This document shows, one piece after another, positions 11,301 through 20,300 of a stretch of DNA of 64,000 bases; positions within the stretch are counted from its first letter, which is position 1; the number at the start of each line of letters is the position of its first letter. Origin of the DNA: a phage; sequence record PZ674595.1. One strand, given 5' to 3'. Position numbers: made by a program.

Positions 11301-14300
11301 CGATAATTTGTTTTGCAAGAAGACATAACTCATCATGTTGATTTAATAAGGAATCAAACCATTGTTTAAATGCACTCTTTCGCATTTCGAACAATGATTC
11401 AGTTGTTAATTGAAGGGCTGAAAAAGCTGCTTTTGCACTTTTTCTCGCTTCGTAGGCATTCCATGCTGTTGCTATAAAAGCAAATGCTGTAGCCAATGTT
11501 CCAACAGTTTGACCATTTAAAACAACCCAATCCCAAAAAATGACGGTGAGCAGTAGTATAATAATGAAAATTAAAAAAGGCATGTATGTATTTCACTCTA
11601 CTAACTATAAAATATTAGGCTAATGTTAACCAAACAATGCCTTAATTAATAGATTGATCGAGGCTTTAATAGCTTTATAATGCAGATTGCAAAGATAAGT
11701 ATGCACACACCTATCTTCTTTGTAAGTAAAGTTGCATATCAATTCTATGAGGTAACAATGACAATCACTATCTACGGACGAGATAACTGCTCATACTGCA
11801 AACGTGCGGTCGAGCTGGCGAAGCAACTAAAGGGACATGGCTACGGTGATTATGAGTACATCGACATCACTACTGCCGGTATCGACAAGGAAAAACTTAG
11901 TGAAATTGTTGGTAAACCGGTAGAGACTATCCCCCAAGTACTGATCGATGGTCAACCGATTGGCGGATACACAGAACTGGCTGCATACGTCAGCACCCTC
12001 TGATTTTAACGGCTCACAGGAGCCGTTTTTTATTCCCACCAAACTCACTCCTGTTTCCCTTAAAATTCAAAAAACAACGTCTAAATGATTCCATACCTAC
12101 TATGTATGGAATCATTGCTGAAAATGAGTTACTTTTACTCTTGATCCTATAAGAATCTATGCCTAATATACTGTTTACTTATACAGTGCATCGGCGTAAC
12201 TCGGTGATTGTCATATGAAAAATAGCTTTGACAGAGCACGCGCTGCGGAGAACACCTCAAAAGAGGCGATAGAGTATCTCGAAAGAGCATCTCAAATGCA
12301 GGCCGTTATGATCTCCCAGGTCAGCAATGACATGAGATTCTCGGACGCATTCATGTTATTCACTCGCTTATCTCTGCTGATAACCAGACGTCGGCCAGAG
12401 ATCGCTGTTCATTGTATTTTGATACATGTTTTGCCGCACATTGCCGATGTAAAAGTAAGTGACATTAATAGGTTCATGGTGAACCAACTGGTCAACCCAC
12501 TAATACTGGATGGCAAAATTGTTATGGGCCGCCGCGTTTTCTCTCTGATGAAGCAGTTCCTTAGCTGGTGCGCCTTCCAGGGGATGATAGACGTGTCACC
12601 GTTAAACGATATGTCACTTAACAAAGTTGCCGGTGGCGCAAAGCCCACACCTCGCGAGCGGAAGCTGACCGACGCAGAGGTATGGGTGTTCTGGAATATA
12701 TGGGACTACTTCAATGTGTGTGCTGGTACAAAATGGGCGGCCAGGCTATGTCTTGTATCCGCAAGACGACCTGACGAAGTACTGCGGGCTAAAAAAAGTG
12801 AGTTCAATCTTAAGCGTGGGGTTTGGAATCAAGGCAAGAGGAACAAATCTGCCCGTGAGCATTCTCTGCCTTTAAGCTCATTAATGCGCACTTGTATTGA
12901 AGAGTTGTTCGAATATGGTAAAGACAGCCAGTGGCTCGTGCCTTCGAATAAAAAAATCGGGAAAGACCTTCCTATGTCTAAAGTGGCAATAGCCCAGGCA
13001 TTACGTCGTATTCTGGAACGACCAGAACTGATGGAGCTTGAGCCATTTACACCCCGAGATTTGCGCCGTACTGCGCGTAGTTACTTCCCAGCATTAGGCA
13101 TAAGCCAGGAGGTATCACGTAAAATCATGAACCACAGTCTTGAGGGGATAGATCGGGTCTACGACCGGCACGATTATATGGACGAGATGCGAGACGCCTT
13201 AGAAAGTTTCTCGACGTACATCGCATCAATCGTAGAGCAACCGGATTTAGACGAAATTGACCACAAATTTAAGGGAGATCGTCTATCAACAGAGCTTATT
13301 CGTGTAAATTTTTCATAGAGACTTTATGGCCTCAACAACCTTTTGTGATGCGCCTTTCTCTTTACCGAATCGCTCGTTATATGCAGCAAGAACCTGTTTT
13401 TCGTCCTCGTTAAGAGGAGCAGTGCCTTCTTTGTATAAAAATGCTGCGAGTTCGGGTTGGCGTTCTTCCAGCACCATCATCATAAGACGACTTGGCTCAA
13501 TACCCAGTGCCAGCGCCAGCGGACGAACCTTATCGATAGGCAAAGGAATTTTGCCGCTTTTAATTAAAGAAAGGTTGTTGGCGTTTTTATACCCAATTGT
13601 TTTGGCTATCTGGGCCTGGCTCATAGGTGAGGATTCAATCAACCCTGCGATAAAAGCAGCGTAGCGACTTTCTATAAATTCAATCTTGTTATCAGACATG
13701 GTTACAACCTTTGCGCGTTCAATTCTCTCTGGTAAGTGCTTACCGATATTACATCAAAGGTTAGGGTTGTAAAGCTATTATCATTTTTTTCGATAGGCAC
13801 TTAAAAGACCGGTTAAAGGCCATTGCACGGAGAAAAATTAGCCCAAAACAGGTAAGAAAATCAACTTGCATATGATATGAATGTATTCAGTATTGATACA
13901 AATTTTAGTAGTATTCCTTACCATAATATAAGTTAGAATGGATTGATTGAATGAACACCACTATTTCCAGCCTAATCGCTCTTGAGATCGGACACGTACA
14001 GAAATTAGCTGATGAGTGTGTAGCTGACATCCTCACCGATCTACCGAATGAGCAGATTCAGGTTGGTGTGAATGACACAACTGGATTTATATTCGAACTT
14101 AACAACAAACGCTTCACGCTTCTCAATACCGGCTCCGGGTCTTTAGCCGTCAGAATCTGTTAACCCCTCTTCTCCCTGCGCGAATGGCTTAGTTCCCTGT
14201 TCGCGCAGTGCTACATTAAACACACTAGTAAATAATTTGTTTTCATAACAAAGGATTAGCCATGTCTAAAAAACGTTCCATCAAAGAGGTTCAGGACTTC

Positions 14301-17300: not shown

Positions 17301-20300
17301 AACGGTTTGCTTTCATTGGCACTGGCAACACAAACGGTTCTGGTGATGAAACCGGCTTGTACCAGGGTACAAACATCCAGAACGCCGCGAACTTTTCACG
17401 TTTTGGCATCGTTTCGAATGTGAAATACATGAGCAAAGAGGCAGAGATCAACATGTTGATAAATGCCGGCATCGTGGATGAATACGCTGAAAAGATGGTT
17501 AAGTTTGCCGGTATCGTTCGCGATGGATATGAAGAACACCTTATCAGCCAGCCAATTGGGCCTCGTGAGCTTTTGTTGTCGGCCAAGATTGGAATGATGC
17601 GAGGCGACTTTGTGACAGGTATTGAGCGTTCTTTCATTAACAAACTCCCTTCAGCTTCTGCGCAAGCGGCTCGTGAAGTTGTTCAAAAAATATTTGGTTA
17701 ATCGTGCGTAAAGGATGTTTCGGCTCTCTTATCGCTGCTTCTGAAACTGGCAAGGCTTGTCTGGGGTGTCCAGACAAGCCCGATTGTCACCAATCAGCAA
17801 AAGAAGTTGCGATTTCGATGTATGGGAAGTTCGTAGGCTTCCCCAATGACAAAATCAAAAAAACCAGAAAGGTAAAAACACATGAAGGCACTGATGGTTC
17901 GAACTGACTTCTCACTTGGGGAGTCGGCTCTAAAAGCAGAAAACGCGGTGAAGATTGCCAGAGAAGCTGGCTACACCGCTGTAATTTCAGCAGATAGCAT
18001 GAATATTGCAAGTGTTATTCCACTACAACGTGCCGCTGGTGACGACATGGCGGTTATTTGTGGTGTGAAACTAAACATTGTTGATGATCCCACATACGAG
18101 CACCGGGCTAAACTTGCTAAAGAATCTATGAGATGTATGGAATCATTAGAGCGGGGACGTAACTACTCGTTTACCGCTCTAATTAAAAATGAGCAAGGAT
18201 ATCGCGACATCTGCGAACTAATGACGGCGGCCAACACACGAGAACAGTTCTACTTTGTACCGCGTCTCTCGCTCGAACAGTTGGTTTCTACATATGCCAA
18301 AGGCAACATCATCCTGCTTACTTCCGACATCGGTAGCGTGTTCCAACGCAACGATTTTGCAAAAATCATAAGCACACTGATTACAGCGGGTGGAAAAGAC
18401 AACTTCTATAGTGTGGTTTATCCGCACCCTACCCCATTCTACGACCAGATTAACGTCCGGGCGATGAAAGTCGCCAGCGCATTGAAAATAGAGCCAGTGG
18501 CGTTCTATCCCGCTTATTACGAATCGATCGACGATGCAGACATTAAAGACATTGCGCACATGGTTACGAACAACATCAAAATCGACCAGCCGCATCGTCT
18601 GCGTATCCCCCACCAGCGAGATAACGCCGTCAATGGTCGCCGCCATCTCCTTGAGGCGCTTAAAGCCTTCTCCGTTCGCATGGATGTGCCGGTAACAGCT
18701 GCAATGGCCTCAACAACGCAGGATACCATTATCGATGCCTGCACATGGCGCTGGCATGAATTGCCGCCAGCACTGCCAAAGATGGCAGACGACGAGCCTG
18801 CAACGCTTATGAAACTGGCTGTTGCAGGGCTGCGTAAACGTCTTACCACAAAAGAGTTTGGCTACACACCACCTGCTTCTGAGAACAGGGTTTATGTTGA
18901 GCGGCTAAAGTACGAAATGGACACGCTGACTCGCCTGGGATTCTGTGGTTACTTCCTGATGGTGCGCGATCTGATGAATCATAGTCGTGAAACTGGCATT
19001 CCCGTTGGGCCTGGTCGTGGTTCCTCTGCCGGTTCTCTGGTGGCGTGGTGCATAGGCATAACCAACGTCGACCCAATCCGTCACGGTCTTCTGTTTGAGC
19101 GTTTCATCAACCCTGAGCGTCTCGACTTGCCAGATGCGGATTTGGACTTCAGCCAGGCACGTCGCCATGAGGTGATCGAGTATCTGAATGAACGCTACGG
19201 CGAAGATTACGTTGCAGGCATTCCGAACTTCACCTACCTGGGCGCAGCCTCTGCACTACGTGACACCGCTCGTATTTATGGTGTGGAGTCCGCAGATATG
19301 GCGGTATCAAAAGAACTGAAGAACGCTGAGGATGATAGCCTTCCATTGGAAGAACTGCGCGAACAACTGGCAAGTCTCGACAAATACGCAACAAAATATC
19401 CTGATGCATTCAATGCAGCCTGCAAGTTACAAAGCCTTATGCGTGGCTTTGGTAGACATGCGGCAGGGATGATCGTAGCAGGTGTTCCTCTGACAGAACG
19501 TACACCGGTTGAGCGCCGTGGTGACGCGCGTTGTATCGCATTTGACAAGCGTTACTGCGAGGCTATGGGCCTAATTAAGCTGGACGTGCTTGGCCTGGCA
19601 ACTCTCGATTTGCTCGATAGTGCAAAACGCTACATAAAAGAGAACACAGGTGAAGATATCAATCTTGATGCCATTTCTCTTGAAGATCGCAAGGTGCTGG
19701 ATGGTTTTGCTGCTGGGTACACTCAAGGTGTTTTCCAGCTTGAATCAGGCCCAATGCGCAAGCTGCTTAAAGATTTAGGTGGTGGAATTGAGCCAATGAG
19801 CTTTAAAACGGTCGTCGCTACAACTGCGCTCTTCCGGCCGGGGCCAATTCAATCAGGCATGTTGGATGACTATGTTTCTGTCGCCAAAGGCTTTATGACG
19901 CCGGAATCATTACACCCCGTTCTTGATGAACTTACCGCGGAAACAAATGGCGTGATTCTCTATCAGGAACAGACGATGAACGCGACTCGATTGCTTGCCG
20001 GCTTCACAATGGCTGAAGCTGACGCTGTGCGTTCCGCAATCGGTAAGAAGAACATGGAAAAAATGAAGAGCATGGGCGAGAAGTTCATCGTTCAGGCTCA
20101 AGCTGGCTGGATAGACGTTGAGCTGGAAGATGGCACTACACAGCGCATTCACCGTGCGGAACATTTTAAATGCGAAGACGGAACTCTGAAAACTGTCGAA
20201 GAGGCACTTGAGCACGGCGCAAAACTACCTATAAACGCAGTACGCGTTACAGCGTCACATCCAGGGCTATCAGAGATGAAAGCGAAGGAGATCTGGACCG

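Follow-up and report, generated by a model that had tools for sequence, protein, structure and literature searches.

The 64,000-nucleotide (nt) stretch of phage sequence record PZ674595.1 analysed here (the window, to which all window coordinates refer) belongs to an SSU5-type Escherichia coli phage-plasmid and carries a CobT-like gene (14262 to 16370; 702 amino acids, aa) followed by a gene for a CobS-like AAA+ ATPase (16466 to 17701; 411 aa), both on the plus strand, as are all features described within them. We propose that this pair is a CobST-type motor-adaptor machine that has been recruited to the lytic DNA replication module and does not serve cobalt insertion, and we consider the chances of this reading to be about even. 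The gene pair itself is already known and widely annotated. What is new is a motif contrast with genuine CobT, a MucR-type zinc finger on the motor, and an invariant linkage to dnaE, the gene for a DNA polymerase.

A sequence-only reading of the window had described two adjacent open reading frames (ORFs) spanning 14262 to 17701 as a phage-borne pair of the CobS/CobT type, that is, a MoxR-like AAA+ ATPase plus a VWA protein, with the VWA gene first. We find the ORFs at exactly those coordinates and in that order, 95 nt apart on the shared strand, and matches in Pfam, PHROGs, and the Protein Data Bank (PDB) support the assignment. The 702-aa protein matches Pfam CobT over aa 9 to 292 (E = 3e-27), CobT_C/VWA over aa 492 to 701 (E = 2e-82), and phrog_1576 (unknown function; E = 3.5e-300), and its best PDB sequence matches are to Brucella CobT (21vt_A, E = 2.9e-16; 9uka_G, E = 1.2e-13). 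The 411-aa protein matches Pfam AAA_5 over aa 173 to 293 (E = 2e-15) and phrog_249 (“porphyrin biosynthesis”; E = 2e-106), with Brucella CobS as the best PDB match (9ujv_A, E = 1.8e-25). Chance similarity is excluded, since domain E values reach 2e-82 and database homologues number in the thousands, the nearest 90% cluster by itself holding 3,307 member sequences. In addition, the arrangement is that of a MoxR-type AAA+/VWA pair, with an ATPase of the AAA_5/MoxR-CobS group adjoining a VWA protein that has a complete MIDAS (metal ion-dependent adhesion site).

The CobT-like protein begins with a zincin-like domain of predicted M48-like fold (aa 1 to 233; 14262 to 14960), which runs into a presumably disordered acidic linker rich in Asp, Glu, and Ser (aa 222 to 380; 14925 to 15401). 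This linker, put at roughly 150 residues by the sequence-only reading, measures 159 aa, with 31% Asp plus Glu, 26% Ser plus Thr, and a net charge of -35. The distance from HExxH to MIDAS spans 246 to 581 aa in 123 homologues, and the acidic linker is a family trait common to cellular CobT and no peculiarity of this protein. A PADLOC match to DrmE (E = 7e-4; aa 340 to 533) overlaps the linker and was rejected as probably composition-driven. Further downstream, aa 463 to 502 (15648 to 15767) align by HMMER with the “shaft” of Brucella CobT (Q373 to R413; 9uka_G). The VWA domain (Pfam CobT_C; aa 492 to 701; 15735 to 16364) contains DLSGS at aa 511 to 515, and its MIDAS residues D511, S513, S515, N605, and D633 align with D422, S424, S426, N518, and D546 of Brucella CobT.

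Within the N-terminal domain, the HEVAH motif that had been noticed in the sequence is present at aa 74 to 78 (H74-E75-x-x-H78; 14481 to 14495) and is a candidate zinc-binding or catalytic motif, followed by a helix reading NALEDVFIE (N103, E106, D107, E111; 14568 to 14594) that may supply the third zinc ligand. A search with aa 1 to 230 against 1.84 billion cluster representatives gave 1,138 matches at E ≤ 1e-3, and among the best 150 of these (33 to 73% identity), HExxH was found in the first 200 residues of 148. The two exceptions are a fragment beginning past the motif and one sequence reading DHQVAL. Residues invariant in a 27-sequence alignment of the domain include G70, F71, D73, H74, E75, H78, E106, D107, E111, G120, N124, and R166, and N103 is conserved in at least 90% of the same sequences. 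Both elements of a zincin motif, HExxH and a downstream Glu, are thus conserved across the family, and as a sequence pattern this is a gluzincin-like signature. The earlier suggestion of a metal site or peptidase-like function, for which the conservation of HExxH in homologues was the proposed check, is a fair reading of this conservation together with a confident model of the domain. HExxH likewise occurs in Rhizobium phage RHph_X66, Roseobacter phage CRP-810, and a phage of the Zobellviridae (Cobavirinae), as well as in a Salmonella genomic-island protein adjoining ssb and bet. On that island (AB571791.1), genes for a CobS-like AAA+ protein of 322 aa that lacks the zinc finger (1804 to 2772) and an HExxH-VWA protein of 598 aa (HEAAH, DMSSS; 8001 to 9797) lie on either side of the recombination genes ssb and bet, so the pair in its intact-zincin form extends beyond phages.

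Genuine cellular CobT differs at precisely this motif. For comparison we used three cobS-cobT loci, from Sinorhizobium meliloti, Cereibacter azotoformans, and Pandoraea oxalativorans, and HExxH is missing from all three CobT proteins, the aligned positions reading D-S-M-A-L-R, D-A-F-A-L-R, and D-A-A-A-L-Q, while the downstream Glu residues are kept in part. Given zero of three against 148 of 150, the cellular N domain appears to be a degenerate peptidase fold and the mobile-element clade to have kept the catalytic signature; at the level of sequence, HExxH is the mark by which the phage clade is told from genuine CobT.

The AlphaFold model of the N domain (mean predicted local distance difference test score, 90.5) has a helix, a three-stranded sheet, and further helices, the topology described for Brucella CobT_N. 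A Foldseek search of this model against the PDB returned nothing below E = 2, a profile of the phage N domains did not recover Brucella CobT_N among PDB sequences, and Pfam gave no sequence-level match of the domain to any peptidase family. The profile did match the anti-CRISPR AcrIIA26 (PDB 9zq6_B; E = 0.011) over the NxxEDxFIE helix (aa 95 to 143; window approximately 14544 to 14690), a weak match that we treat as probably due to chance. Compared with the M48/M56 peptidases Ste24/ZMPSTE24, HtpX, and BlaR1, the phage domain is soluble and without membrane segments. The intact zincin motif suggests zinc binding by the N domain and, possibly, client proteolysis. In the literature, Liu et al. 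describe cyanophage cobT as “mistakenly annotated as a peptidase” (PMC8651126), and a full-text search for CobT together with HExxH listed a single paper, on Thi4 thiazole synthases.

The AAA+ core of the motor (aa 142 to 411; 16889 to 17698) was delimited by alignment to Brucella CobS. It contains the Walker A motif GHAGTGKS (aa 175 to 182; 16988 to 17011) and Walker B residues D241-E242 (17186 to 17191), and the sensor 1 Asn, Arg finger, and sensor 2 Arg are likewise conserved in the same alignment, with reference to the catalytic residues named in the Brucella preprint. Phage CobS proteins of this group have about 100 extra N-terminal residues relative to cellular CobS, and it is here that the Cys/His cluster seen in the sequence-only reading lies, as C18, C21, H26, H31, and C37. 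We assign this cluster to a Ros/MucR-type zinc-finger module (aa 10 to 74; 16493 to 16687), the window’s own sequence being placed there through the family profile.

The assignment is based on an alignment of 25 distinct sequences from SSU5-, nickie-, RHph_X66-, and L168-type lineages, with the pattern C-x2-[CD]-x4-H-x4-H-x4-H, in which a Cys after x5 replaces the last His in the SSU5 type. After the finger comes a conserved Y...[FY]P[GD]xP..S motif, and C18, H26, Y56, P61, and S67 are invariant. When scanned individually against Pfam, 19 of the 25 members matched ROS_MUCR (best E = 4.2e-6), and no other family was matched by more than 10. Comparison of the alignment with eight MucR proteins from plasmid records in hhalign gave a probability of 96.7% (E = 4.5e-10) across 36 columns, the metal ligands among them. 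The relationship is reciprocal: among 2,189 ORFs, the phage profile ranked six MucR proteins (E = 3e-6 to 3e-4) above every unrelated ORF (next, 0.38), and a MucR profile ranked 22 CobS proteins above every unrelated ORF in the same set. In the Rhizobium-phage clade, Asp replaces the second Cys, a substitution that is also seen among the MucR proteins compared. The Ros/MucR domain (PF05443) has the same Cys-x2-Cys-x9-His spacing, with His after x4 as the fourth ligand where the SSU5 type has Cys after x5, and a Tyr/Pro-rich motif after the ligands is common to both families. The finger is fused to an AAA+ ATPase here and to the MucR oligomerisation domain there.

MucR-type fingers belong to regulators that bind DNA, and the presence of one on the motor suggests, from sequence, that the machine is tethered to DNA or to a DNA-bound partner. 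In other lineages of phage CobS (CRP-810, Cobavirinae), the N-terminal extensions are different and longer, which suggests that the N terminus of phage CobS is an exchangeable targeting module. A homologue search that used the N terminus of the ATPase as query yielded just 10 fragments, and a profile of the eight MucR sequences gave E = 0.046 for the near-identical protein of phage Cyrano and 2e-4 to 2e-3 for other SSU5-type proteins.

The third observation concerns gene order. Downstream of the pair lies the gene for a DnaE-type DNA polymerase III alpha subunit (17882 to 21400, plus strand; 1,172 aa; Pfam PHP, DNA_pol3_alpha, finger, and HHH_6), and in 35 of 35 loci we observe cobT, cobS, and dnaE in that order on one strand, with 0.2 to 1.4 kilobases (kb) of small ORFs before dnaE. 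Among them are the loci of Cyrano, SSU5, Klebsiella-type relatives, Pseudomonas phage nickie, and Rhizobium phage RHph_X66, one on a metagenomic contig, and 26 on viral contigs retrieved with distant queries. Locus searches with the window proteins or the N-domain alignment found close SSU5-type relatives only, and the distant loci were obtained from annotated phages and from queries with distant homologues; lineages among the syntenic loci are approximately 30% identical in CobT_N. An arrangement of helicase, primase, and ligase followed by cobT, cobS, and dnaE is annotated in nickie and RHph_X66 and can be seen in L168. In addition, cobS and cobT adjoin the polymerase and primase-helicase genes in a podovirus of the Zobellviridae whose polymerase is a different one.

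Between cobS and dnaE in the window is orf67 (17704 to 17907, plus strand; phrog_6337), which encodes a 67-aa Cys-rich protein (C5, C19, C22, C28, H29), starts 3 nt past the cobS stop, and shares 26 nt with the beginning of dnaE. Each of the six enterobacterial SSU5-type loci examined has it at this position, but the other lineages all lack it and have larger ORFs there that are apparently unrelated. From cobT to the dnaE stop, a consensus scan found no terminator-like site on the plus strand except a weak 5-pair stem inside dnaE (20713 to 20730). A GC-rich hairpin just past the dnaE stop (21407 to 21428), a consensus match that the scan scored on the minus strand, is a possible end of the transcription unit. 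A consensus promoter scan gave no more sites than shuffled sequence. The C-terminal region of DnaE (aa 1053 to 1168; window 21038 to 21385) resembles family-4 uracil-DNA glycosylases (TIGR00758, E = 5e-7), and the DnaE of a distant relative has a Pfam UDG match.

The setting also suggests when the genes are used. A gene for a helix-turn-helix (HTH) repressor (13313 to 13699, minus strand; HTH_19) is divergent from the cobT operon and is its probable regulator; its Cyrano equivalent is CYRAN_45, annotated as a putative repressor. In transcriptomes of the LF82 lysogen, CYRAN_45 is expressed above local background, and CYRAN_47 to CYRAN_49 (cobT, cobS, and dnaE) are not among the genes reported above background (PMC9928086), a pattern that fits a lytic-phase operon adjoining the lysogeny switch.

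How far the pair resembles cobaltochelatase can be judged against Brucella melitensis CobSTN (PDB 9ujv, 9uka, 21vt). In these structures, CobS forms an ATP-dependent hexameric ring; CobT consists of a peptidase M48C-like N domain, a disordered linker of approximately 90 residues, and a VWA domain, preceded by the shaft that enters the ring pore; CobN docks at the MIDAS side of CobT; and CobT_N binds the last helices of CobS (bioRxiv 10.64898/2026.07.21.739949). The phage motor is the same AAA+ motor with the catalytic residues all kept, and the adaptor has the same architecture of M48-like N domain, disordered acidic linker, shaft segment, and VWA domain with complete MIDAS. Homology, together with the kept motifs, MIDAS, and shaft segment, makes a ring-plus-shaft assembly a reasonable expectation, and insertion of the phage segment into the pore may be supposed by analogy with the shaft function given in the preprint.

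This homology to CobS and CobT is real, the conserved MIDAS and shaft are the parts that contact CobN and CobS in Brucella, and the standard reading in the phage literature (PMC8651126) is that such genes encode genuine chelatase subunits with an auxiliary metabolic function; by taking over a host CobN they would increase the cobalamin supply, from which a B12-dependent ribonucleotide reductase, for instance, could benefit. For this pair, we consider action as a cobaltochelatase very unlikely. The NCBIfam equivalog thresholds are not reached for either TIGR01651 CobT (70.4 bits against a cut-off of 759) or TIGR01650 CobS (84.9 bits against 558.6), so that the pair scores 7- to 11-fold under the cut-offs for chelatase subunits. 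No CobN-like ORF was found in the 64-kb window, where the larger ORFs encode DnaE, ribonucleotide reductase, an SbcC-like ATPase, MetG, and a DUF4942 protein. The chelatase adaptor has a degenerate N domain that docks on the CobS C-terminal helix, and the phage pair departs on both counts: HExxH is intact, and the helix (with the AANIV patch that binds CobT_N) is missing. In addition, the H2 insert is shorter in SSU5-type CobS than in Brucella CobS, the gene order is opposite to that of the cellular cobS-cobT loci (three of three), and, unlike the cellular chelatase, the phage pair lies in a replication operon with dnaE and its motor has the extra N-terminal finger. The rationale of supplying B12 to a class II reductase does not apply, because the element's own ribonucleotide reductase is a class I enzyme and independent of B12. 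The hosts are likewise not known to offer a CobN route: Salmonella and Klebsiella use a CbiK-dependent anaerobic route without CobN, and E. coli, to our knowledge, lacks a corrin-ring synthesis pathway. Both SSU5 counterparts are called “putative porphyrin biosynthetic protein,” and in Cyrano (OV696614.1), CYRAN_47 and CYRAN_48 are labeled “dimethylbenzimidazole phosphoribosyltransferase” and “cobalamin synthetase”; the Cyrano labels are wrong because the Salmonella names CobT and CobS collide with those of the unrelated Pseudomonas-type chelatase subunits.

We therefore turn to what a CobST-type machine in a replication module might do. By analogy with the Brucella CobST structures, the 411-aa AAA+ protein would form an ATP-driven hexameric ring, and the 702-aa protein would dock by pushing its pre-VWA shaft into the ring pore and would show its VWA/MIDAS face to a client protein across the long flexible acidic tether. 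The adaptor’s N domain, with its complete zincin motif, would probably bind zinc and might cleave the client, and the Ros/MucR-type finger would place the machine on DNA or on a DNA-bound partner. Once the lysogeny repressor is lifted, the pair would be co-transcribed with orf67 and the DnaE polymerase, and a replisome component or DNA-bound protein would be remodelled or processed. A bolder version, which we offer tentatively and hold to be rather doubtful, is that phage “cobST” in general is a DNA-tethered AAA+/VWA/zincin remodeller, a dedicated accessory of the DnaE replisome, from which cellular CobT would be an exapted form with the protease inactivated. One possible task of such a remodeller would be to clear the origin, or the DNA in front of the fork, of bound host or phage proteins by stripping or cleavage; another would be to activate the polymerase. 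Midasin/Rea1 offers a parallel in working principle, as an AAA ring that holds a ligand through a MIDAS domain and thereby detaches a factor from a large complex. Its AAA modules, of the same AAA_5 kind, are the next-best PDB sequence matches of the ATPase after CobS (E = 1e-11), but Midasin is one giant polypeptide of eukaryotes that works on pre-ribosomes, whereas here there are two phage proteins with a zincin and a zinc finger in addition.

Several points weigh against a DNA-tethered machine of the replication module. The finger of the window’s own protein has an insertion of 12 to 13 aa, its N terminus gives no direct Pfam match to ROS_MUCR at E values up to 10, and a structure model of it is poor and without useful fold matches; moreover, a zinc finger can bind protein instead of DNA. 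The 35 syntenic loci are non-independent, probably representing one broad group of DnaE-encoding phages of approximately 105 to 120 kb, and linkage to dnaE may thus be partly inherited genome architecture and not independent evidence. No polymerase gene is present in the 12 kb examined around the pair of Roseobacter phage CRP-810. In Pseudomonas phage nickie, HExxH is replaced by DSEISK and the pair is retained; loss of the motif there and in one other representative, with the pair kept, indicates that proteolysis is not universally required. Finally, an experimental function for phage CobS/CobT was not found in the literature searched. The nickie lineage is at the same time a natural test case for the relevance of proteolysis, since its locus (cobT-like gene at 8974 to 11058) lacks HExxH but keeps the cobT-cobS-dnaE arrangement and the CobS zinc finger.

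The same three parts, an AAA+ chaperone, a VWA co-chaperone, and an N-terminal zincin, have been described in T4-like jumbo phages, where vWA partners of phage MoxR have a fused N-terminal metallopeptidase; a role in virion assembly was proposed for these pairs, and the MoxR/VWA proteins of the archaeal virus ATV were shown to act in tail development (Iyer et al. 2021, PMC7824862). The likeness, which we draw from their description, would make the present pair a chaperone and protease that folds and processes structural proteins. This we judge quite improbable, as the pair lies in a replication and recombination module with a DNA-binding-type zinc finger on the motor and precedes dnaE in every locus compared. 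In Cyrano it sits among genes for helicase, primase, ligase, UvsY, gp32, exonuclease, and RecA, and the virion and lysis genes (terminase, capsid, tail, and lysis) are at 0 to 28 kb, more than 15 kb away. Alternatively, a DNA-tethered motor with a zincin could act early in the lytic phase by removing or cleaving proteins bound to host DNA or of host origin on DNA, such as nucleoid-associated silencers, repressors, or defence proteins of the host, and leave the replisome itself untouched. Such a host-takeover or counter-defence role would sit well with a finger typical of DNA-binding regulators, with the G+C content of the element (43 to 47% over most of the window), with the neighbouring lysogeny switch, and with related HExxH-VWA and AAA pairs beside ssb and bet in another kind of mobile element. 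We nevertheless find it unlikely: beyond the weak DrmE match from PADLOC, nothing resembles known defence or anti-defence families, a candidate target cannot be identified, and strict linkage to dnaE is better explained by a role in replication.

The wider element fits a phage-plasmid with its own replication machinery. Over 14000 to 21500, the window is 97% identical to phage Cyrano and approximately 80% identical to Salmonella phage SSU5, and E. coli plasmids of approximately 110 kb match the window end at 100% identity. Upstream of the pair are genes for a DnaB-like helicase, a primase-like protein, a DNA ligase, an IS1380-family transposase with blaCTX-M, four tRNAs, a glutaredoxin-like ORF (Glutaredoxin in the Cyrano annotation), an integrase, and the divergent HTH repressor. 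Downstream of dnaE follow a gp32-type single-stranded-DNA-binding protein, a 5′-3′ exonuclease, RecA, the SbcC-like ATPase, class I ribonucleotide reductase, and thymidylate synthase. The reductase large subunit with an ATP cone (37820 to 40135), its small subunit (PF00268; 40242 to 41384), and thymidylate synthase (42476 to 43606) form a nucleotide-supply module (37820 to 43606) that is independent of B12.

The transposase (ISEcp1-like; 6001 to 7263) and a CTX-M family extended-spectrum beta-lactamase (7459 to 8391; NF033089, 626.5 bits against a cut-off of 570) sit between the DNA ligase gene and the tRNA cluster, where G+C content is raised; the Cyrano annotation has neither between its ligase and tRNA genes. 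The four-tRNA cluster (9476 to 10128; Asn, Tyr, Thr, Ser) has three members in the equivalent place in Cyrano (Asn, Thr, Ser). Copies of host housekeeping genes are also present, namely, apbC/mrp (58902 to 60002, minus strand) and metG, encoding methionyl-tRNA synthetase (60031 to 62193). Most places matching this region are on chromosomes, and other records are mostly 80 to 95% identical. A chromosomal junction at the window end was considered and rejected, because the best matches are the approximately 110-kb plasmids at 100% identity, and the two genes are therefore plasmid-borne copies.

Genes named cobS and cobT are among the “auxiliary metabolic genes” most often reported from phages, in cyanophages, pelagiphages, archaeal viruses, and enterobacterial phage-plasmids, and for twenty years phage “cobST” has been annotated as serving vitamin B12 metabolism. 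In the lineage studied here, the B12 reading is very unlikely in view of the lack of CobN in the window, a B12-independent reductase of its own, and telling sequence differences. SSU5-type phage-plasmids spread clinically important resistance genes, and this element, with an ISEcp1-type IS1380 transposase beside blaCTX-M, is an example, which gives practical value to knowing what their replication module needs. The presence of an intact zincin motif in mobile elements and of a degenerate one in cellular CobT bears on the evolution of ATP-driven chelatases. Together, the motif contrast, the finger, and the dnaE linkage mark the pair as a separate variant of the CobST/MoxR-VWA kind, so far uncharacterised, and bring its function within reach of a test.

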